Below are positions 19,189 through 28,442 of a DNA stretch of 64,000 bases, in pieces. Position numbers and translations under genes: made by a program. Source of the stretch: Ardenticatenales bacterium (GTDB lineage: Bacteria; Chloroflexota; Anaerolineae; Epilineales; Epilineaceae); NCBI GenBank assembly GCA_020853525.1, contig JADYYS010000050.1, forward strand, positions 18,672 to 82,671. Direction: 5' to 3'. Within the stretch, counting starts at the first letter, position 1, and each line of letters opens with the position of its first letter. The notes below the pieces were generated by a model, which saw nothing but the letters and a program-made list of their open reading frames with translations, did no database searches and was not told where the DNA came from.

Positions 19189-19734
19189 TCAACCGTACAG
19201 CATCGCGTAGATGACGACGCCCGTCGCCGAGACGTACAACCAGATCGGCAGCGTCACCTTGGCGATCCGCCGGTGCCGCGTCACGTCCCACGTCCAGCCG
19301 CGGTACAGCGTGACCAGCGCAAGCGGCACGATGAGCGTCGCCAGGACGATGTGGCTCAGCAGGATCGTCAGGTAGAGGCCGCGGTACGGCCCGCCGTACG
19401 GCGTCGGCGCAGCCTTGAAGGTGTGGTAGACGACGTAGGACACGAGGAACGCCGACGAGCACCCGAACGCCGCCAGCATCGCCCGACGGTGGAGCTCGAT
19501 CCGCTTGCGGCGGATCAGGATGTAGCCGACGATCAGGCACGTGCCCGCCAGACCGTTGAACGTGGCGTTGAAGGCCGGCAGTGCGCTTACGTCGAGCCGC
19601 CCGGCGACGCCGTCGGGGCGCGGGCCGAGGATGAGGAACGCCACGGCTCCGACGACGACGGCGGACAGGATGGCGATGACGGTCAGCCAGAAGCGGTCGG
19701 TGCGGCGGGGCGCGGCGTGGGCGGATGTCGACAT
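19189..19734 (-). CDS. DUF420-family membrane protein (a family often found near haem-copper oxidase / SCO genes).
   Basis: MSTSAHAAP... followed by 4 TM helices. YHTFKAAPTPYGG and LTILLSHI are typical of DUF420. GAGGAA Shine-Dalgarno. Confidence 0.65.
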   Translation of the reverse strand: MSTSAHAAPRRTDRFWLTVIAILSAVVVGAVAFLILGPRPDGVAGRLDVSALPAFNATFNGLAGTCLIVGYILIRRKRIELHRRAMLAAFGCSSAFLVSYVVYHTFKAAPTPYGGPYRGLYLTILLSHIVLATLIVPLALVTLYRGWTWDVTRHRRIAKVTLPIWLYVSATGVVIYAMLYG

Positions 19735-19816
19735 CACGTTCCTCAGCTTGCGGGCACGACGATCGGCCGATATGGTAGACGCCTCCCCCCCGAACGCCAC
19801 GCCCAGGACGCCGCGC

Positions 19817-22800
19817 ATGCTCCGCTCACGCCAGGCCGCCCTCGTCGCGCTCGCCCTTACCGCCGTTGCCGTCGGCACGGCGCTGGCCGCCTCCGACCCT
19901 TCGCGCCGCAGCCCCGACGCGCGCGTTCCCGACGCCCGCGCCGTCCATGCCGCTCAAGGCGTCCGCTCGCCCGTCACCGTCACCCTCGACAGCGGCACCG
20001 TCGAGTGGCGCGCGGCACCGTACGCCGAGGTCGGCGCGTTCTGGTATTCCGGCGAGAGCTTCTACTTCAACGCCTTCGGCTCCGCCGACAGCACCGGCCG
20101 CGTCGTTCTGACCTGGTCCGACCCGACGCCCGAGCGCACGGACAACGACCGGCCGTTCGAAGAACTCGATCGGCTGGTCCTTCGCGCCGGCACGGCCGTC
20201 GATGTCGGCGCCGTCTACACGATCACGCTTCCTGCCCTCGACGCCGAGGTCGACGCGCCCGGCGACCGCATCGCCCTGCGCGGCCCGCCCGGCGCCACGC
20301 TGGCCGTCCGCGTCCGCCGCGCCCTCGACCGCGATGTCCTGGCGCTGACCGGAACGGACGTCGTCCGGCGGGACGCCGGCGACGTCGGCGGCGCCCTCGC
20401 CGGCCAGCGCTCCTCGGGCGAGCCCGGGCGCTCGGTCTGGGCCGGCAACGTCACGGCCGGCGGCGACGGCGCGACGGAGGTCCGGCTCGCCGGGACGGTC
20501 GATGTCCAGCCGGGCGACATCGTCGAGGTGCAGCGCGTCTGGGCGGGCGACACGTTCGTGCTGCGCCGCACGGCCTTCCAGCTCGTCACGGGCGACGGCC
20601 TCCGGCAGCCGGTCGCCTACGGGCGGCCCGGCGAGCGTGTGGCCGTGGATGTCCAAAGCGGCGGGCGGCGGCGGGGCTGCGCGACGACGATCGGCCGGGC
20701 GGGTTGGCGCAGCTGGTCCTGCGGCGAACCGATCGCGGCCGGCGACCGGATCACGGTGTCCCACAGCGGCGGGCTTCTCCCGCTCGTCCGCACCACGGCC
20801 ACCGTCCCTCAGCTCGCATTCCGACCGGGTGCCGGTTCGAAACCCGCGGACCTGACCGGCCCGCCGAACGCCCGCCTGCGCTTTGTCGAGGTCGACGCCC
20901 TCGGCGGTCCGTCGGGCTTCGACGTCGTGCTCGACGCCCAGGGGCAGGCGACGCTGCCTGCCGGACGACCCGCGCGCGGCAGCCGCTACGCGTACGCCTG
21001 GCGCGACGTGAGCGGCATCACGTGGGGCCGCGGCGGCTTCGTGCCGCAGATCCGGCTCGTGCTCGGCGAGCCGCGGCTGCGCGGGGTCTGGCCGGCGGAC
21101 CCGGTAACCGTCACCGTCTCCGGGCACGGCGGGGCGGTCATCGGCCGCTGGTCGCGGGCGCGCACCTCGAGCGGCAGCGCACGATCGATCCCGCTCTACG
21201 ACCCGCGGAGCGGGCCGCAGGAGCCGCTGCACCGCCTCGCCCCGGGCGAACGCATCGAGGTTGTCGTGGGCGGCGACGAGCCTGTGGTCTGGACGGTGCC
21301 GGATCTGGCGCTGCAGTTCGATGCCGACCGCAATCAGCTGGCGGGACGGCTACCGCTCGGCACGCGCGGCACGCTGACCGTCCTCGAGGCCATTGACGGC
21401 GACCCCGACCCGCTCCAGCCCTTGGACGACCTCGCCGACAGCCGGTTCGTGCACCGCGCCACGCTGTCGCTCAGCCCGGCAACCGACGGCGCGTTCGCGG
21501 TCCGGGTCTCCGACTTGCGCACACCCGACGGCTTCCGGCTGCCGGCCCACCGGCTCGTCCTGTACGCCGTCACCGCCGAGCGGGCCGACGGCAACGCGGT
21601 GATGGCCGTCGTCGCGCGGCCGTGGCTCCGGATCGACGCGCAGTCGGTCAGCGCCGAGGGCTTTGGGCCGTCGGGTCAGACGGTCGACATCGAGGTGGCG
21701 GATGCGGCCGGCCGGCCCGTCGTGCGCCGCCGAACCGACGATGCCGTCGCGACGGCGATCGATCGGCCGGTGTGGAGCATCCCGCTCGTCGACGCCGTCG
21801 GCGCGCCCACGGCGCTCCGCCCGGGCGACCGCGTGACCGTCACGATCGGCGCCTCGCGAAGCGCGCTGACCGTCCCGCCGACGGCGGCGCACGTCGACCT
21901 CCCGGGTCGGTCGGTTCGCGGCCGGACGGCACCGAACGCGTCGCTCACCATCGCGTTTTTCGGCGAAGCATGGGGCGAGCGCCGCTGGGTCGTCCGCGCC
22001 GGGCCGGACGGCACGTTCGAGACGCCGCTGCCCGCCGGCGTCCCGCTCCGGCACAACGACCGGGGCGAGATCCTCGGCCGCGTCGGACCGCACGTCGTCA
22101 CCGCGCAGATCGTCGTCCCGTCGATGATCGCCGACCTGAGCGTCGGCCGGATCTGGGGTCGAGGCGCCGCCGGGGCGCCCGTGGACGTGACCGTGCTCCG
22201 ACAGGGTCGTGCGGTCGCGTCGGGTCGACGCCTCGTGGACGACGGGCTGACCTTCGACGTCGACCCGCGCGACGCGGGCGGCCGGCACGTCCGCCCGCTG
22301 GCCGGCGACGTCGTCGTCCAACGCGTCGACGGCCGCCCTGCGATGACCCTCACGGTGCCGGCGCTCGCGGCGCGCTGGGTGCAGGCCGACGGTGCGATCG
22401 CCGGGACGTCGCCGCCCGGCAGCGCCGTGGACATCCAACGCCCGGCCGGCTTCGAGCTGACGGGCGCCGGCTGGGACGTCGGCTACGCCGATGTGGCCGC
22501 CACGGGCGCGTTCACCGCCTCGGCGCGCCATCGGTTCGGTCTGACCACCGGCCTGAGCGCGCTCGTGCAGGCCCGCGTGCCGGACGGCGTGATCGCCTGG
22601 CGCTGGGTCGCCACGCCCGTCCTCAACGTTCCGCACGGCGGCGACAGCGTCTGCGGCCAGGCCATGCCGTGGGCCGTCGTGCACGCCACGGCCACGCTCG
22701 GCGACGGCCGTACGGCGGAAGGCAGCGGCGGCGCGGACCCCAACGGCCGCTTCCGCATCCCGCTGCGTCGCGCCGACGGCCGGCCGGTCGTGCTCGCCGC

Positions 22801-23785
22801 GGGCGACGTCGTACGCGCGGTCGTCGACGGCACGGCGCTCGAGGCCACGTTGCCCGCGCTGACGTTCAAGGTCGACCGGGCCGCCCGCCGCGGCACGGGC
22901 AGCGCGCCGCCGGGCGCCATCGTCTCGATCGAGCACCCGGCCGGCAGTTGCGCCTCCCGCGACAGCGCCGATCCCATCGAGCGGACATCGTTTGCCTATG
23001 CCAGCCAGGCCACCGCCGACGGTCGCGGCGCGTACGATGCCTCGTTGCCGCTCTTGCCGCGCGCGCTCGAATCCGCGCGTCCGCCCGCGTTCGAAGCCGC
23101 CCTCCTCGACGCCGCCGGCCATCGCCACTTCCGCCTCAGCCGGGCGCTGCGCATCACGGCCCTCGTCGACACGGATCGCGTCACCGGGGAGGCCGATGCC
23201 GGCCGCAGCGTCGCCGTGACGCTCGCCCGCCCCGGCGGCCTCACCGCCCGCGGCACCGCCGTCGCCGACGCCCTCGGGCGCTTCACGGCGACGCTCGCCG
23301 CCGATGGCGGCGGTGCCGCGGTACGCCTGCAGGCAGGCGACTCCGTCGCGGCCACCGCGGACGGCGAGGCCCGCGGCCTGACCGTCCCGCCGCTGGCCGT
23401 CGACTGGCACCCCGAGCGGGGCCTCGACGGCCGGACGGATGCCGGCGCGACCATCCACGTCCGGTTCATCCTGCCGCGCGGGCTTGTCTCGGCGCAGGCG
23501 ACGGACTTCACGTTTGCGCTGACCGCCGACGCCACGGGCCGGTTCTCGAGCGCCGCCGCCGCAGCGCGCGGCCACTGGACCGCGGCTGACGTCCGGCGGG
23601 TCGAGGTCTGGCGGTCGTTCGAAGAGGACGATCGGGTGATGGTGGCGTTCGACACCGAGCGCGGCCCGGCACCGCCCACGCCGCCGGGCAGGCCGACGCC
23701 TGTCGCGACGGCGCGGCCACCGGACGGCGTGGACGGCGGGCGGGCGCACCTGCCGTGGGCGGGGCGAGAGGCGGACATGCCCTGA
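19817..23785 (+). CDS. Very large (~1320 aa) secreted protein built of repeated ~100-aa beta-sandwich (Ig-like) modules. Function unknown.
   Basis: Signal-like N-terminus MLRSRQAALVALALTAVAVGTALAAS. Recurring module ends TLTVPALAARW, LEATLPALTFKV, GLTVPPLAVDW and ALTVPPTAAHVD. No catalytic motif recognised. The start position is uncertain. Confidence 0.5.
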   Translation: MLRSRQAALVALALTAVAVGTALAASDPSRRSPDARVPDARAVHAAQGVRSPVTVTLDSGTVEWRAAPYAEVGAFWYSGESFYFNAFGSADSTGRVVLTWSDPTPERTDNDRPFEELDRLVLRAGTAVDVGAVYTITLPALDAEVDAPGDRIALRGPPGATLAVRVRRALDRDVLALTGTDVVRRDAGDVGGALAGQRSSGEPGRSVWAGNVTAGGDGATEVRLAGTVDVQPGDIVEVQRVWAGDTFVLRRTAFQLVTGDGLRQPVAYGRPGERVAVDVQSGGRRRGCATTIGRAGWRSWSCGEPIAAGDRITVSHSGGLLPLVRTTATVPQLAFRPGAGSKPADLTGPPNARLRFVEVDALGGPSGFDVVLDAQGQATLPAGRPARGSRYAYAWRDVSGITWGRGGFVPQIRLVLGEPRLRGVWPADPVTVTVSGHGGAVIGRWSRARTSSGSARSIPLYDPRSGPQEPLHRLAPGERIEVVVGGDEPVVWTVPDLALQFDADRNQLAGRLPLGTRGTLTVLEAIDGDPDPLQPLDDLADSRFVHRATLSLSPATDGAFAVRVSDLRTPDGFRLPAHRLVLYAVTAERADGNAVMAVVARPWLRIDAQSVSAEGFGPSGQTVDIEVADAAGRPVVRRRTDDAVATAIDRPVWSIPLVDAVGAPTALRPGDRVTVTIGASRSALTVPPTAAHVDLPGRSVRGRTAPNASLTIAFFGEAWGERRWVVRAGPDGTFETPLPAGVPLRHNDRGEILGRVGPHVVTAQIVVPSMIADLSVGRIWGRGAAGAPVDVTVLRQGRAVASGRRLVDDGLTFDVDPRDAGGRHVRPLAGDVVVQRVDGRPAMTLTVPALAARWVQADGAIAGTSPPGSAVDIQRPAGFELTGAGWDVGYADVAATGAFTASARHRFGLTTGLSALVQARVPDGVIAWRWVATPVLNVPHGGDSVCGQAMPWAVVHATATLGDGRTAEGSGGADPNGRFRIPLRRADGRPVVLAAGDVVRAVVDGTALEATLPALTFKVDRAARRGTGSAPPGAIVSIEHPAGSCASRDSADPIERTSFAYASQATADGRGAYDASLPLLPRALESARPPAFEAALLDAAGHRHFRLSRALRITALVDTDRVTGEADAGRSVAVTLARPGGLTARGTAVADALGRFTATLAADGGGAAVRLQAGDSVAATADGEARGLTVPPLAVDWHPERGLDGRTDAGATIHVRFILPRGLVSAQATDFTFALTADATGRFSSAAAAARGHWTAADVRRVEVWRSFEEDDRVMVAFDTERGPAPPTPPGRPTPVATARPPDGVDGGRAHLPWAGREADMP

Positions 23786-23883
23786 GGCCGCTCGCTCCCC
23801 CGGCAAGTCCCGCCGCCGCTCCGATCGTCACACCGCCCCCCACCCGCTATCGTTACGCCCTCGCCCATTCCGAGGAGCCGACG

Positions 23884-25005
23884 ATGCCCGTACTTCCGCC
23901 CGCCGGCCGCCCCGCCGTGCTCGCGCTCGTCCTTGGCGCCGCACTTTCGGCCGTCGCCTGCACCGATCGCGCGACGCGGACGCCCGCCCCGCCGACCGCC
24001 ACCCCGTCGCCCGTCGCGACCGCGACGCCGATCGCCTCGGCGACGGCCACCGCCACGGCCACGCCGCCGCCGCACGAGCTGTCCATCGAGTTCCTGCGCC
24101 GCAAGGCCCATCCCGGCGGCCCGCTGACCGTCGTGCGCGAGCTCGGGGCGAAGGGGAACTACACCCAGTCCGTCGTCCGCTACCCGTCGGACGGCCTGGC
24201 GATCCAGGCACTGTTGACCGTGCCGCAGGGCGATCCGCCGCCGACGGGCTGGCCGGCCGTCATCTTCAACCACGGCTACATCCCACCGGCGCAGTACCGC
24301 ACGACGGAGCGCTACGTCGCCTATGTCGACGCGTTCGCCCGCAACGGCTACATCGTCCTCAAGAGCGATTACCGCGGCCACGGTGAGAGCGAGGGCGATC
24401 CGTCCGGCGGCTACGGCAACCAGGGATACACGTCCGATGTCCTGAACGGGCTCGCATCGCTCCGCGCCCGGCCCGATGTCGACCCCGACCGGATCGGGAT
24501 GTGGGGTCACTCGATGGGCGGCTGGATCACGCTGCGGAGCATGGTGACGACGGACACCGTCAAGGCCGGTGTGATCTGGGCCGGCGTCGTGGCCAGCTAC
24601 CCTGATCTCCTGACGCGCTGGCGCCGTCCCGGCGCCCCGACGCAGCCGGCCGCGACCACCGCCGGCGGCCTGAGCGCGTCGTCCTCCGCCGGCCGCCGCT
24701 GGCGCACGGACCTCGTCGCGCGCTTCGGCGAGCCGGAGGCGAACCCCGCCGCGTGGGCACCCCTGTCGGCGAACACCTACCTCGCCGACCTGTCCGGCCC
24801 GATCGAACTCCACCACGGCACGGCGGACAGCAGCGTGCCGTTCGGCTTCTCGGAGACGCTCGTCGAAGAGATCGAGGCCGTCGGCGGCAACGTGGCGCTG
24901 TTCACCTACCCGGGCGACGACCACAACATCAGCGCGAACCTGTCGACGGCGCTGGCGCGGTCGGTGGCGTTCTTCGATGCACACGTGAAGGACATCGCGC
25001 CGTAG
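23884..25005 (+). CDS. Alpha/beta-hydrolase lipoprotein (prolyl-oligopeptidase / dienelactone-hydrolase-like).
   Basis: Lipobox ALSAVAC. Nucleophile elbow GMWGHSMGGW. A Thr/Pro/Ala-rich linker follows the lipobox. Confidence 0.7.
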   Translation: MPVLPPAGRPAVLALVLGAALSAVACTDRATRTPAPPTATPSPVATATPIASATATATATPPPHELSIEFLRRKAHPGGPLTVVRELGAKGNYTQSVVRYPSDGLAIQALLTVPQGDPPPTGWPAVIFNHGYIPPAQYRTTERYVAYVDAFARNGYIVLKSDYRGHGESEGDPSGGYGNQGYTSDVLNGLASLRARPDVDPDRIGMWGHSMGGWITLRSMVTTDTVKAGVIWAGVVASYPDLLTRWRRPGAPTQPAATTAGGLSASSSAGRRWRTDLVARFGEPEANPAAWAPLSANTYLADLSGPIELHHGTADSSVPFGFSETLVEEIEAVGGNVALFTYPGDDHNISANLSTALARSVAFFDAHVKDIAP

Positions 25006-25040
25006 TCGCGGACTCCCCCCATCGGCCCCCCCGGCCGACA

Positions 25041-25093
25041 TTGACACATCGATCGTGGTCGATATAATTGCCGCATCGATCGTCATCGATGTG
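25041..25093. promoter_or_regulatory. Consensus sigma70-type promoter TTGACA (25041-25046), 16-nt spacer, TATAAT (25063-25068), embedded in the inverted repeat CACATCGATCG ... CGATCGTCATCGATGTG. Candidate ArsR-family operator, suggesting autoregulation.
   Basis: Seen in the sequence. The promoter hexamers and spacing are perfect, and the palindrome arms flank and overlap them. Confidence 0.5.
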
Positions 25094-25481
25094 TTGTCTG
25101 GAGTCCGCCGTGACCGCAACCCAACCCACCGCCCTCTTGTTCGCCAAGGTCCTCGCCGACGACACGCGGCAGCGGATCATGACGTGCTGCTGCTGCACGT
25201 GGCGCTCGGTCGGTGACATCGTCGAGGCGCTGGGCGGCGACGTGGGGCAGCCGACGGTCTCGCATCACCTGGCGGTGCTGCGGGACGCGGGGCTGGTGCG
25301 GCTGCGGCGGGACGGTCGGCAGACGTTCTACGCGTTGGACCAGGAGCGCGTGGCGAGCTGCTGCGGTCAGGTGCTGACGTCGTTCGCGCCGCAGACCACG
25401 GCCGCGGCGGCGGTCGTCGCGTGCTGCGAGGACTGCGGCCCGGCGTCGACATCGGCGCCGATCGCGTTGGTCACGCCGTGA
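25089..25481 (+). CDS. ArsR/SmtB-family metal-sensing transcriptional repressor, unusually Cys-rich.
   Basis: Winged-HTH LADDTRQRIM...SVGDIVEALGGDVGQPTVSHHLAVLRDAGLV. It has a CCCC cluster (MTCCCCTW) and a C-terminal CC...CC.DC cluster. The start was chosen downstream of the promoter. The ORF-track start at 25068 would overlap the -10 hexamer. Confidence 0.7.
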   Translation: MCCLESAVTATQPTALLFAKVLADDTRQRIMTCCCCTWRSVGDIVEALGGDVGQPTVSHHLAVLRDAGLVRLRRDGRQTFYALDQERVASCCGQVLTSFAPQTTAAAAVVACCEDCGPASTSAPIALVTP

Positions 25482-25500
25482 CCGAGCGGGCGGGTTTTTT
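25470..25500. terminator. GC-rich stem followed by a T7 run (GGGCGGGTTTTTTTGG). Probable intrinsic terminator after the arsR-like gene.
   Basis: Seen in the sequence. U-tracts are rare in this GC-rich DNA. Confidence 0.4.
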
Positions 25501-25613
25501 TGGGCCAATGCATCGATGGCGATCGATTGGTTTGCCGCGGCGAAGACGTCGCCGCGGCAGCGCACCGAGCCGGACCGCGCTGTGCGTCCGGCCAACAGAT
25601 CCATGGAGGATCG

Positions 25614-25779
25614 CATGAACGATGTGACGGGTTCGCAGATCGAGGATCGGATGACGGCCGGTTGTTGCGACGGTGGGTCGGGGTGCTGCGGCGGCGGTTG
25701 TTGCGGCGGCGGCGGCTGCAGCTGCTGCTGCAGCGACGATTGCGGTTGCGATCCGACGGGCGACACCACGCCCCAGTAA
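25614..25779 (+). CDS. 54-aa Cys/Gly-rich peptide, metallothionein-like: MNDVTGSQIEDRMTAGCCDGGSGCCGGGCCGGGGCSCCCSDDCGCDPTGDTTPQ.
   Basis: It has a strong Shine-Dalgarno (GGAGGA, 4 nt before the ATG), 16 Cys in 54 residues, and sits immediately downstream of the ArsR-type sensor. A second ATCGAT-containing palindrome lies upstream of it at 25520-25545. Low-complexity frame artefacts (poly-Ala in the other frames) cannot be excluded. Confidence 0.45.
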
Positions 25780-25800
25780 GCCGGCACGCCGGTCGGTCGG

Positions 25801-26035
25801 GCCCAACAACCGGTCCCCCCCGGCCCGCACGCAAACGATGCCCGGTAGGGGCAGGTCCCCGTGCCTGCCCCGTAGGCCGTCCCATCACGCACCCCATTCC
25901 AAACCCAACAAGACGCGACGCGTGTCGTGTGGGCCGGGGATGGGGCGGGGTGGGGGGCCTACGGGGCAGGCACGGGGACCTGCCCCTACCGGGCATCGTT
26001 TGCGTGTCGGCCGGGGGTGTCGGTTGTTGGGCGCC
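25801..26035. repeat. Giant imperfect palindrome (~235 bp). Arms 25801-25877 and 25955-26035 carry a perfect 51-bp inverted repeat core. The 77-bp centre is itself quasi-palindromic around ACGCGT.
   Basis: Verified by reverse-complementing. 25826-25877 equals the reverse complement of 25955-26005 exactly. Confidence 0.85.
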
Positions 26036-26177
26036 ATTGCATTCATCGATCAAATGTTCTATTCTCCGATGCGTATAATCCCGATCGATCACCTGCTCGA
26101 GCGCCTGTCGCACGACACCCCGTCCGCCCCCACGCCGCCGACCGCCCGGTCGGCATCGCCCGCGCCCGGAGACCGCC

Positions 26178-28442
26178 ATGACGATCGCCCAGCCTTTGCT
26201 CGACCTCGACGGAACGCGCGATGAGGCGAACGGGCCGGCTGCCGATAGCCATCGCGTGGCCGTCGGCCAGACCGTCGACATCGCCGAGACCGCCGCACTG
26301 CCGCCGAATGCAAAGCCTGCGCCGCGCGCGCGCAAGACGGAAGCCGACGCGGCCGACTACGGCGCATCCTCCATCACCGAGCTTGGCTTCCCCGAGGCCA
26401 TCCAGAAGCGGCCCGGGATGTACATCGGCAGCCGCAGCAACCTCGGGCACCTGCTCGTCGAGATCGTCGACAACAGCATCGACGAGGCGATGGGCGGGCA
26501 CTGCTCGCGGATCGACGTCACGCTGAACGCGGACGGCAGCGCGACGGTGATCGACGACGGGCGCGGCGTGCCGACGGCGATCCATCCGGACAGCGGGCTC
26601 TCGGCGCTGGAGATGGCCTTCACGAAGCTCCATACCGGCGGCAAGTTCAACCAGGACAGCTACAGCACGTCCGGCGGGCTGCACGGCGTCGGGATCAAGG
26701 CGACGAACGCGCTGTCGGCGTGGCTCGTCGTCGAGGTCCGACGGGACGGCGTGAAGTATCGGCAGCGGTACGAGCACGGGTACGTGAAGTCGCCGGTCGA
26801 GATCCTCGACCCGAAGAGCGGCAAGGCCGTCGCGGTCGTCGGTTCGGCGGACGCGGCGGCGGCGACGAAGAAGGCGGCCGATCGCAAGCTCGGCACCGGG
26901 ACGACGATCACGTTCCTGCCGTCGAGCGAGTTCCTCGAGGTCACGCGCTTCGACTTCAGCGCGATCGCCCATCGGCTGCGGATCGCGGCCTATCTCATCC
27001 CGGGCCTCACGCTCACCCTCACGGACCTGCGCGGGCCGGAGACGCGCCGCCGCGAGTACCACGAAGAGGGAGGGTTGCCGGGCTACGTCGGCCACCTGAA
27101 CGAGAGCCGCAAGGTCATCCACGCCGCGCCGATTCGGATCCACGGCAACACCGACTCGGGCGTCGCCGTCGACCTGGCGTTCCAGTACCACACGGACGAC
27201 GACGAGGAGATCCTCAGCTTCGTCAACACGATTCCGACACCCGACGGCGGGACGCACGTCTCGGGCTTCCGCGCCGCGTTGACGAAGGCGATCAACGTCT
27301 TCGGCCAGGAGAAGAAGCTGATCAAGGGCGACGACGACATCACCGGCCGCGACACGACCGCAGGATTGACCGTCGCGCTATCCGTCATGATGCCCGAGCC
27401 CGAGTTCACGTCGCAGACGAAGACCCAGCTCGGCACGCGCGACGTCCACGGTCAGGTGCTCAGCTTGGCATACGAGCAACTCCTCGAGATCTTCCGGTCC
27501 GACTCGGCCCTCGGCCGCAAGATGGTCGATCGCTGTCTGGCCGCGTCCCGCGCCCGCGAAGCCGCCGCCAAGGCACGCAGCCTGGTCATGCGCAAGAGCA
27601 TCCTGGAGGCCGTGGACAGCGGCCTGCCCGGCAAGCTGGCGGACGTCGCCAAGAACGCCGACACGGCGCGGACAGTGCTCTACATCGTCGAGGGCGACTC
27701 GGCCGGCGGCAGCTGCAAGCAGGCGCGCAACAACAGGTTTCACGCGATCCTGCCGCTGCGCGGGAAGATCCTGAATACCGAGCGCGCCCGCCTGAACCGC
27801 GCCCTGTCCAACGCCGAGATCAAGTCGATCGTCTCGGCCGTCGGCGGCGGGATCGCGCGCGACTTCCGGGTCGAGGACATGCGCTACGCCGGCATCGCGA
27901 TCTTCGTCGACGCCGACGTGGACGGCCTGCACATCATGACGCTGCTGCTGACGCTCTTCTGGCGCTTCATGCGCCCCATGATCGACGCCGGCCGGCTGTA
28001 CGTGGCCCGCGCGCCGCTCTACCAGGTGAGCAAGGGCAAGCGCAGCGAGTACGCCTACACGGAGTGGGAGCGCGATCAGGTGATCGCCCGCTTCGGCAAG
28101 CAGGGCACGAGCGTGCAGCGCTACAAGGGCCTGGGCGAGATGAACCCGAGCCAGCTGAAGGAAACGGTCTTCAGCCTGCCCGAGACCGAGGGCGGCCCGA
28201 CGCCGTTCGCCAACCGCAACCTCTTCCGCGTGACCGTCGAGGACGCCCACCAGGCGAACCAGATGGTCCAGCTCTGGATGGGCGCGCACGTCGGCCCCCG
28301 CAAAGCGCGCCTGATGGCGATCTGGGACGGCGAAGCGACGTTCGACGAGCTGGCGGAGGACCTCGTCGCCGGGAGCGTCGACGACGTCGAGTTCACCGGG
28401 TTCGCCGGGTTCGCCGAGTCCGGCGACGACGAGGAAGGCTGA
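26178..28442 (+). CDS. gyrB: Type IIA topoisomerase ATPase subunit (GyrB/ParE family) with a ~55-aa non-conserved N-terminal extension.
   Basis: Motifs RPGMYIGS, LVEIVDNSIDEAMGGHC, GGLHGVG, the Toprim element EGDSAGGS, the QTK loop and KGLGEMNP are present. A TATAAT hexamer at 26073 lies upstream. The gyrB/parE distinction is not certain. Confidence 0.8.
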   Translation: MTIAQPLLDLDGTRDEANGPAADSHRVAVGQTVDIAETAALPPNAKPAPRARKTEADAADYGASSITELGFPEAIQKRPGMYIGSRSNLGHLLVEIVDNSIDEAMGGHCSRIDVTLNADGSATVIDDGRGVPTAIHPDSGLSALEMAFTKLHTGGKFNQDSYSTSGGLHGVGIKATNALSAWLVVEVRRDGVKYRQRYEHGYVKSPVEILDPKSGKAVAVVGSADAAAATKKAADRKLGTGTTITFLPSSEFLEVTRFDFSAIAHRLRIAAYLIPGLTLTLTDLRGPETRRREYHEEGGLPGYVGHLNESRKVIHAAPIRIHGNTDSGVAVDLAFQYHTDDDEEILSFVNTIPTPDGGTHVSGFRAALTKAINVFGQEKKLIKGDDDITGRDTTAGLTVALSVMMPEPEFTSQTKTQLGTRDVHGQVLSLAYEQLLEIFRSDSALGRKMVDRCLAASRAREAAAKARSLVMRKSILEAVDSGLPGKLADVAKNADTARTVLYIVEGDSAGGSCKQARNNRFHAILPLRGKILNTERARLNRALSNAEIKSIVSAVGGGIARDFRVEDMRYAGIAIFVDADVDGLHIMTLLLTLFWRFMRPMIDAGRLYVARAPLYQVSKGKRSEYAYTEWERDQVIARFGKQGTSVQRYKGLGEMNPSQLKETVFSLPETEGGPTPFANRNLFRVTVEDAHQANQMVQLWMGAHVGPRKARLMAIWDGEATFDELAEDLVAGSVDDVEFTGFAGFAESGDDEEG

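Follow-up and report, generated by a model that had tools for sequence, protein, structure and literature searches.

Between a hydrolase gene and parE (topoisomerase IV subunit B), the 64,000-nucleotide stretch of Ardenticatenales bacterium DNA analysed here (contig JADYYS010000050.1; G+C content 69%; from now on called the window) carries two small plus-strand genes, one for a repressor of the ArsR/SmtB family (arsR) and one for a cysteine-rich peptide of 54 amino acids (aa). The best explanation of this pair, in which we have moderate confidence, is that an ArsR responsive to arsenite (As(III)) or methylarsenite (MAs(III)) represses both itself and an arsenic-binding micropeptide. The locus is of a known kind, a metalloregulator together with a thiol-rich sequestering peptide, but the peptide family is new.

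The connection with arsenic comes from the relatives of the two genes. A genome scan with the regulator gave as best matches Chloroflexota metagenome-assembled genomes (L001-L004, 50-63% identity), and a scan of metagenomes, for which an alignment of regulator relatives served as query, gave 80 further loci (52-67% identity); the resulting subfamily set comprises 85 ArsR proteins and 84 related loci with 279 kb of DNA. The gene following arsR in these loci is most often arsM, for arsenite methyltransferase (NCBIfam NF008823, 308-310 bits, cutoff 263), of which an ArsP_1 permease and an arsC (arsenate reductase) of the LMW-PTP (low molecular weight protein tyrosine phosphatase) type are frequent companions. 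The initial annotation of the window had advised a search for homologues of the peptide. A relative of the peptide open reading frame (ORF) directly follows arsR in 22 of the 84 loci (20 of the 65 whose downstream DNA extends to 200 nt or more), always on the plus strand and 0-115 nt past the arsR stop, and none is found elsewhere in the 279 kb. In all 22 loci a hairpin, a run of 7-8 T, GCC and an operator precede the peptide ORF, and every family member is preceded by AAGGAGGT. The products in the related loci, which are almost never annotated, are 16-45 aa long and end in ...CCGGGGCC (a 26-aa member reads MNELNVLNNCVCEECEGGCCGGGGCC); their consensus is MNELxVLNxCxCEECEGGCCGGGGCC, in which the C-terminal C-C-GGG(G)-C-C is invariant. 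In L088, L115, L119, L124, L128 and L149 the gene order is arsR-peptide-(arsP)-arsM, with a hairpin, a T-run and an operator for each unit. Because the relatives of both the regulator and the peptide are located in arsM/arsP/arsC clusters, As(III) or MAs(III) is the likely effector in the window, rather than Zn, Cd, Cu or Pb.

As to the peptide itself, the initial annotation had described a 54-aa ORF with 16 cysteines and a strong Shine-Dalgarno sequence. The ORF, the Shine-Dalgarno sequence and the translation were exact, but the cysteines number 12 (22%), next to 14 Gly and 7 Asp; Phe, Tyr, Trp and His are absent. The accession numbers of the regulator (MCC7020215.1) and of the topoisomerase (MCC7020216.1) are consecutive across the ORF, which shows that it is not annotated at NCBI. 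Judged from its pattern of substitutions, the ORF is a real gene under purifying selection. Across 14 family members, some of them from AT-richer genomes, pS was 0.60 and pN 0.19 (pN/pS 0.32), with TGT and TGC alternating at conserved Cys columns and GGC, GGT and GGA at conserved Gly columns. In L161/162 (about 96% nucleotide identity) there are five synonymous changes, four non-synonymous changes and one in-frame insertion of GAC, with all Cys kept. The loci L163-L166 (GCA_963852785.1 and wastewater metagenomes) retain the synteny, all three operators (see below), the Shine-Dalgarno sequence and the 54-aa peptide. In L163 the in-frame sequence 5' of ATG 25615 diverges non-conservatively, and only from MND onward is the sequence conserved. 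We therefore fixed the start at 25615 and rejected the longer calls (87 aa from ATG 25516; 93 aa in relatives), for which there is also no Shine-Dalgarno sequence.

Searches of Pfam and NCBIfam with the 54-aa and 87-aa forms and eight Chloroflexota homologues (all at E<=1-10) and with four actinobacterial peptides gave no match, nor did a search of the PDB with the peptide profile. Among 5.8 billion proteins the single peptide had 1 match and the profile 10, all unnamed or "hypothetical"; among 1.84 billion representatives the profile had 4 matches, and since all of these are family members, the peptide has no tie to a larger protein family. A Cys-rich peptide linked to ars genes is not described in the full-text literature searched. 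The earlier suggestion of a metal-binding peptide unlike described metallothioneins is in keeping with a Cys-rich gene that is absent from the family databases.

The arsR promoter, which the initial annotation had called a perfect TTGACA-N16-TATAAT, scored 12/12 and was the sole match between 24500 and 26500 (shuffles give 0.1). The inverted repeat reported at this promoter was also found (arms 25044-25063 and 25075-25094, 80% complementary), and is better resolved as two 16-bp palindromes, the operators O1 and O2. The further ATCGAT palindrome in front of the peptide gene, which belongs to operator O3, is real too, but is situated at about 25504-25530 and not at 25520-25545 (about 15 nt off). 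The operator unit has 16 bp, ATCGAT-N4-ATCGAT (= ATCGA-N6-TCGAT), and O1-O3 are the only three matches with at most one mismatch in the 64 kb, where 0.16 were expected and 0 of 100 shuffles reached three; a viral-contig scan with the palindrome core yielded nothing. The promoter design TTGACA-N1-operator overlapping TATAAT is common to L001, L004, L084 and L124, the O1-O2 spacing of 26-27 nt recurs in L084 and L124, and in L161-L170 the half-sites of the operators are fixed and the spacers variable.

The palindromic motif is kept at this place in 85 ArsR subfamily loci and in most actinobacterial ArsR loci. Operators of the class AT(A/C)GA-N6-TC(T/G)AT occur 160 times in the 279 kb of related loci versus 0.62 times in shuffles, 125 of the 160 at most 160 nt 5' or at most 130 nt 3' of arsR. 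Their centre base differs, most loci having ATAGA..TCTAT, and the window, its close relatives, L002, L003 and L081/82 having ATCGA..TCGAT; within a locus one and the same variant is repeated before each gene, a covariation that is predicted for a regulator-operator pair. The position of O1 and O2 over spacer, -10 and start site is what autoregulation by an ArsR/SmtB repressor would look like in sequence. Almost all actinobacterial ArsR genes fetched also have ATyGA-N6-TCrAT in front of them, and the ATCGAT palindromes of the window are therefore members of an ars-type operator family that is widespread.

In every locus a hairpin with a T-run ends arsR, and the T-run abuts a -35-like hexamer (TTGCCx or TTGGGC); from this we infer that the peptide gene is served by a separate promoter under ArsR control. 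With an ArsR operator preceding it, the gene would be metal-inducible. In the window the hairpin with its T7 was not called by the terminator scan. The leader of the peptide gene contains a stem-loop, which L163 retains in shortened form, one C:G pair being changed on both sides to T:A.

That the regulator is of the ArsR type, as first annotated, was borne out by matches to Pfam HTH_5 (4.5e-9; 36.5 bits, cutoff 22) and NCBIfam NF033788 (70.6 bits, cutoff 55); its best relatives in the PDB by sequence are SrnR and SmtB. NCBI has the protein start at ATG 25089, inside O2, with 130 aa and the N-terminus MCCLESA (MCC7020215.1). Relatives read MCYLEPA there and a Shine-Dalgarno sequence is missing, and GTG 25110 is more likely to be the start. 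In 85 of 85 subfamily members C28, C29, C84 and C85 are invariant; G86 is found in 84, W31 in 73 and C27 in 62 of the 85. The cysteine clusters that had been noted as unusual for the family thus fared differently: C28 and C29, as the only two of the four Cys of the CCCC cluster, are invariant, but the C-terminal ACCEDC (C105, C106, C109) is lineage-specific and, because it is missing from nearly all of the 85 members, is not the family sensor. By alignment with SmtB, C28-C29 fall where alpha2 meets alpha3, preceding the position of R773 Cys32 (Ser33 here) by 4-5 residues, and C84-C85 at the start or in the first turns of alpha5. The ligands of the sensor are all Cys, paired vicinally, and alpha5 lacks a His/Asp/Glu site.

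This layout was compared with the known arsenic sites. The type 1 motif of R773 ArsR (Cys32-x-Cys34-x2-Cys37; ELCVCDLC in alpha3) is absent, the region reading CCCCTWRSVGDI where SmtB has ELCVGDL. With respect to type 2 (AfArsR, Cys95-Cys96-x5-Cys102 after alpha5), the window protein has ACCEDC near its C-terminus, which is not conserved in the family; and the type 3 site (CgArsR, Cys15-Cys16 together with Cys55 from the partner subunit) is absent, as the protein read from the GTG start has no N-terminal CC. The sensory site is probably new, and the two-pair layout may be a further independently evolved arsenic site.

We propose the following mechanism. When no inducer is present, ArsR dimers would occupy O1-O3 and both arsR and the peptide gene would be off, O1 and O2 blocking the spacer, -10 and start site of the arsR promoter and O3 acting just upstream of the peptide gene. 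As(III), perhaps also methylarsenite, would bind to C28-C29 and C84-C85, upon which the repressor would leave the DNA. The induced peptide, with its at least six vicinal or near-vicinal thiol groups and flexible Gly and acidic spacers, would chelate cytoplasmic As(III) and could serve either as an encoded buffer, similar to a metallothionein or a phytochelatin, or as a chaperone handing the arsenic over to ArsM or to exporters encoded elsewhere. As(III) is known to bind vicinal thiols strongly (PMC6205960), and by analogy the CC pairs of the peptide would be the arsenic-binding groups.

A re-scan of the more distant ArsR loci of the genome scan revealed about 14 CC-rich micro-ORFs in actinobacterial ars clusters, 12 of them in Micrococcaceae and 2 in loci of uncultured actinomycetes. 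The Micrococcaceae micro-ORFs have the form M-x-T-G-CC-G-D-(S)-G-CC-D-D-...-CC with 17-23 aa (for example MKTGCCSDSGCCDDCPDDMQGCC and MTNGCCGDSGCCDDDQDCC), are unannotated, and are located between trxB and the gene of an FAD-dependent oxidoreductase, each with a Shine-Dalgarno sequence and a hairpin 3'. In L052 and in plasmid NZ_CP084562.1 the micro-ORF fills an unannotated gap of 177 nt between trxB and the oxidoreductase gene, surrounded by arsC genes and genes for a MIP channel, an MFS transporter and an ArsR; the order in Arthrobacter is arsC-trxB-peptide-flavoprotein-arsC. In the two uncultured actinomycetes (L009, L036) the peptide, which ends in ..PCCPDCCPPGCC, is encoded divergently from arsR-arsC, with ATCGAT-N4-ATCGAT in the shared intergenic region, a layout like that of smtB/smtA. 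The four actinobacterial peptides of at least 20 residues were not found in a collection of 15 billion proteins. We consider it possible, and put it forward as a tentative generalization, that in at least two phyla (Chloroflexota and Actinomycetota) ribosomally made, ArsR-regulated and CC-rich micropeptides of 16-55 aa belong to the arsenic resistance regulons and have been missed by gene callers, that they are the prokaryotic equivalent of chelation by phytochelatins or metallothioneins, and that those of the Chloroflexota are controlled through a sixth, independently evolved arsenic site of ArsR, consisting of two pairs of vicinal Cys.

The FAD-dependent oxidoreductase whose gene adjoins the Arthrobacter micro-ORF (L052 1221-2606, minus strand; L171 5474-6877), and which gave a weak match to ArsO, itself has vicinal Cys near its C-terminus (..SGGCCGAPEP.. 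/ ..ESGCCAAPEP..), a pair reminiscent of the CC at the end of MerA and of the redox tails that large thioredoxin reductases carry.

Several findings weigh against an arsenic-responsive pair in the window. With tblastn no match to arsM, arsC, arsP or the gene of a 107-aa protein (see below) was found within the 64 kb, and such a minimal arsR-peptide pair without ars structural genes occurs also in L002, L003, L004, L099 and L159; the assignment of the window locus to arsenic rests on orthology and family context. The Cys layout of the regulator agrees with none of the five arsenic-sensing sites that have been defined by experiment (PMC8470949, PMC11868830), and thiol-rich peptides have an affinity for Cd, Zn, Cu(I), Hg and Pb as well. 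For the peptide gene a convincing -35/-10 pair was not found, the best candidate being TTGGGC-17-TCGATT with 6/12, and in view of this weak -10 the gene may instead be transcribed by read-through, with the operator acting as a roadblock.

The two genes could instead be a soft-metal metallothionein pair, in which the peptide would sequester the cations (Cd, Zn, Cu(I), Hg or Pb) that the sensor answers to. Such a pair would be at home in a window without ars genes and has a precedent in SmtB/SmtA (PMC7387436); the regulator is nearest in the PDB to SrnR and SmtB, and a peptide of 54 aa with 22% Cys and no aromatic residues falls under the broad operational definition of a metallothionein. We nevertheless regard this as unlikely, given that arsM, arsP or arsC follows this ArsR in most loci with enough DNA, that the same peptide family occurs between arsR and arsM/arsP, that among the neighbours examined no metal-cation pump or P-type ATPase adjoins, that Pfam Metallothio_Pro and the other metallothionein models were not matched, and that the sensor has vicinal Cys only instead of a His/Asp/Glu site in alpha5. 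The peptide could also have a redox role, as a mini dithiol/disulfide carrier (a substitute for thioredoxin, or a substrate of a flavoprotein reductase) that feeds arsenate reductase with electrons or repairs thiols damaged by arsenic, and would then not store arsenic. This is suggested by the Arthrobacter micro-ORF, which is found directly between trxB (TIGR01292, 386 bits) and the ..GCC..-tailed FAD-dependent oxidoreductase, with arsC flanking. In the Chloroflexota loci, the window included, no reductase adjoins the peptide, however, its 12 Cys are far above the needs of a redox relay, and disulfides between vicinal Cys are strained and form unusual redox couples, so that such a role seems quite improbable to us.

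The shortness and biased codon usage of the ORF, the terminator-like hairpin found 3' of it in many loci and the structured 5' leader in the window would suit a leader peptide, in which a Cys/Gly-codon-rich ORF senses the supply of cysteine or charged tRNA and attenuates a downstream gene. But in the family loci the next gene has its own T-run and operator past the hairpin, in the window and in L163 it is the unrelated parE with its own TATAAT, selection is not confined to Cys but extends to Gly, to Asp/Glu and to the MNEL at the N-terminus, and length and Cys number vary widely with only the C-terminal CC-G4-CC fixed; attenuation is therefore very improbable. The initial annotation had also raised the possibility of a precursor of a ribosomally synthesized and post-translationally modified peptide (RiPP) that lacks a nearby maturase; it would consist of a leader and a Cys-rich core and be modified by a maturase encoded elsewhere. 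An N-terminus that is short and conserved, with the cysteines gathered towards the C-terminus, would agree with this. The conserved N-terminal part has only about 9 residues, however, and in none of the 22 Chloroflexota and about 14 actinobacterial examples does a radical-SAM enzyme, cyclodehydratase, lanthipeptide enzyme or other maturase adjoin; what is found there are genes of ars clusters, of hydrolases or of topoisomerase, and we give this explanation hardly any credence. Just as little can be said for the poly-Cys frame being a by-product of GC-rich GCTGC/GGC low-complexity DNA, a caveat of the initial annotation. A genome with 69% G+C has many long spurious ORFs, the same stretch translated in the other frames gives poly-Ala and poly-Leu/Arg, and NCBI has no gene here; but the pN/pS of 0.32, the synonymous TGT/TGC and GGN changes, the in-frame GAC, the conservation of the Shine-Dalgarno sequence, its spacing and the stop position, the free divergence 5' of the ATG where the peptide is kept, and the lack of domain matches in the overlapping ORFs all speak for a gene.

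Returning to the arsenic-responsive repressor and micropeptide, comparison with known systems shows what is old and what is new. In its presumed logic, an ArsR/SmtB repressor with palindromic operators controlling a small Cys-rich sequestering protein, the pair resembles SmtB/SmtA (PMC7387436), as the initial annotation had noticed, and the actinobacterial L009 and L036 share even the divergent layout of smtB/smtA. In the window, however, the genes are in tandem with separate operators, and the family context is arsenic rather than zinc. Unlike BmtA/SmtA, the peptide has no Pfam match, no His ligands and no signature of a zinc-finger-like fold (Cys9His(1-2)), and with 16-55 aa the micropeptides are far smaller than SmtA. 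R773 ArsD has C-terminal vicinal pairs, Cys112-113 and Cys119-120, involved in metalloid sensing (PMC4562236), and as an ars-operon-encoded As(III) binder with vicinal Cys it would be an analogue of the peptides, its CC-x5-CC terminus corresponding to their CC-GGGG-CC. ArsD differs in being a folded protein of about 120 aa (thioredoxin-like) with a chaperone site at Cys12/13/18 and ArsA as partner; an ArsD domain was not matched at the locus, arsA is absent from the window and the related loci, and homology to the ArsD C-terminus is not demonstrable from so short a motif.

With the As(III)-responsive ArsRs (R773 type 1, AfArsR type 2, CgArsR type 3, SpArsR, ArArsR) the regulator has in common the winged helix, a presumed autoregulation and control of arsM, arsC and arsP, and, with AfArsR (Cys95-96) and CgArsR (Cys15-16), a putative Cys-only site with vicinal pairs (PMC8470949, PMC11868830); it differs in that its invariant Cys form two vicinal pairs at new positions. 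Phytochelatins and eukaryotic metallothioneins are by analogy counterparts of the peptide, being short, thiol-rich and Gly- and acid-containing and complexing As(III); phytochelatins are made enzymatically from glutathione, in contrast to these peptides, which are ribosomal, bacterial and presumably ArsR-controlled.

Chelation is an accepted route of arsenic detoxification in eukaryotes (PMC11868830, PMC9917255); a 2025 paper on ArsR types lists efflux or transformation for arsenite detoxification in bacteria and places chelation in eukaryotes only (PMC11868830). If the peptides bind As(III), they would supply ars operons with a component so far missing, which could buffer arsenic or serve ArsM or exporters as a chaperone, and bacteria would have arsenic-chelating peptides, a strategy credited so far to eukaryotes only. 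The unannotated gap in the annotated Arthrobacter ars cluster, the site of the micro-ORF, would be accounted for, and very small genetically encodable arsenic-binding tags would become available for biosensing and bioremediation. The regulator would add a new Cys layout to the convergently evolved arsenic sites of ArsRs, together with a well-defined 16-bp operator. Synteny, as used here, recovers conserved micro-ORFs below the thresholds of gene callers.

Table 1. Coordinates of the arsR-peptide locus (positions in the window) and of the actinobacterial micro-ORFs (positions in the loci named).
Feature	Position	Strand	Remarks
S9/alpha-beta-hydrolase gene	23755-25005		upstream neighbour of the arsR-peptide pair
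arsR promoter, sigma-70-type	25041-25068	+	-35 TTGACA 25041-25046, N16, -10 TATAAT 25063-25068
Operator O1, ATCGATCGTGGTCGAT	25048-25063		fills the promoter spacer, 1-nt overlap with -10
Operator O2, ATCGATCGTCATCGAT	25075-25090		27 nt past O1, over the expected transcription start
arsR (ArsR/SmtB repressor), 123 aa	25110-25481	+	start GTG 25110, GGAG 25100-25103
arsR 3' hairpin, then T7 (25495-25501)	25462-25501	+	terminator-like; T-run abuts -35-like TTGGGC
Operator O3, ATCGATGGCGATCGAT	25512-25527		between arsR and peptide gene, upstream of the latter
10-bp stem-loop of the peptide 5' leader, GCCGCGGCGA-agacg-TCGCCGCGGC	25534-25558	+	leader z = -4.0
Shine-Dalgarno GGAGG	25605-25609	+	5 nt 5' of ATG 25615
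Small ORF, 54 aa, MNDVTGSQIEDRMTAGCCDGGSGCCGGGCCGGGGCSCCCSDDCGCDPTGDTTPQ	25615-25779	+	ATG 25615, stop 25777-25779
parE, topoisomerase IV subunit B (NCBI annotation)	26178-28442		downstream neighbour of the arsR-peptide pair
Micrococcaceae micro-ORF	L052 2691-2762	-	further loci: L020, L029, L033, L038, L046, L048, L049, L054, L059, L067, L077
Micro-ORF in plasmid NZ_CP084562.1	L171 5341-5400
Micro-ORF ending ..PCCPDCCPPGCC	L009 5780-5902	-	uncultured actinomycete
Micro-ORF ending ..PCCPDCCPPGCC	L036 5738-5893	-	uncultured actinomycete

Two further proteins of the related loci deserve mention. The ArsM encoded next to this ArsR subfamily has an N-terminal NA(A/S)CCGG-x3-CC (L001 6378-7178, L124 4425-5231, L128 1237-2040, L149 1917-2265), of which the CCGG-x3-CC is reminiscent of how the micropeptides end (CC-GGGG-CC). 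In L124 (2443-2766), L084 (338-670), L083 (1117-1461), L151 (2654-2983) and about 13 more loci, the gene immediately upstream of arsR encodes a conserved protein of 107-114 aa and is preceded by a TTGACA/TATAAT promoter with two operators. This protein has an N-terminal C-x-M and a central ERLCCPFLEF, is without match in Pfam and NCBIfam, and is probably another thiol-based member of the ars regulon.

In the window, the overlapping ORFs on the opposite strand and in alternative frames across the locus contain no domains, and Rfam found in 24900-26300 nothing but sub-threshold miRNA-like noise at the palindromes. Upstream of the hydrolase gene there is an ORF of 1414 aa without obvious function (19541-23785), relatives of which are called at 1319-1371 aa and which has a faint match to Big_6 only.

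The downstream gene, called gyrB-like in the initial annotation, has the NCBI annotation topoisomerase IV subunit B; it is unrelated to the arsR-peptide pair and, here as well as in L163, has its own TATAAT. The ATCGAT motifs reported near its promoter exist at 26045 and 26084, but they are single hexamers and not full operators, and their counterparts in L163 are GTCGAT or absent. Control of the parE promoter by ArsR was therefore rejected. The 5' region of parE (26045-26135) has, after the conserved TATAAT (26074-26079), 42 nt more than in L163 (ATCGATCACCTGC...CCCCCAC).

The stretch from the peptide gene to parE contains an almost perfect palindrome some 235 nt long (25799-26033), unique in the window, with arms (25817-25878 and 25956-26017) that are 97% complementary and a predicted RNA fold of -237 kcal/mol (z = -17.9). 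The palindrome is found in L167/L168 and missing from the otherwise syntenic L163-L166, which indicates that it is an insertion. This insertion is possibly MITE-like (MITE for miniature inverted-repeat transposable element), and the palindrome may act as a bidirectional terminator.

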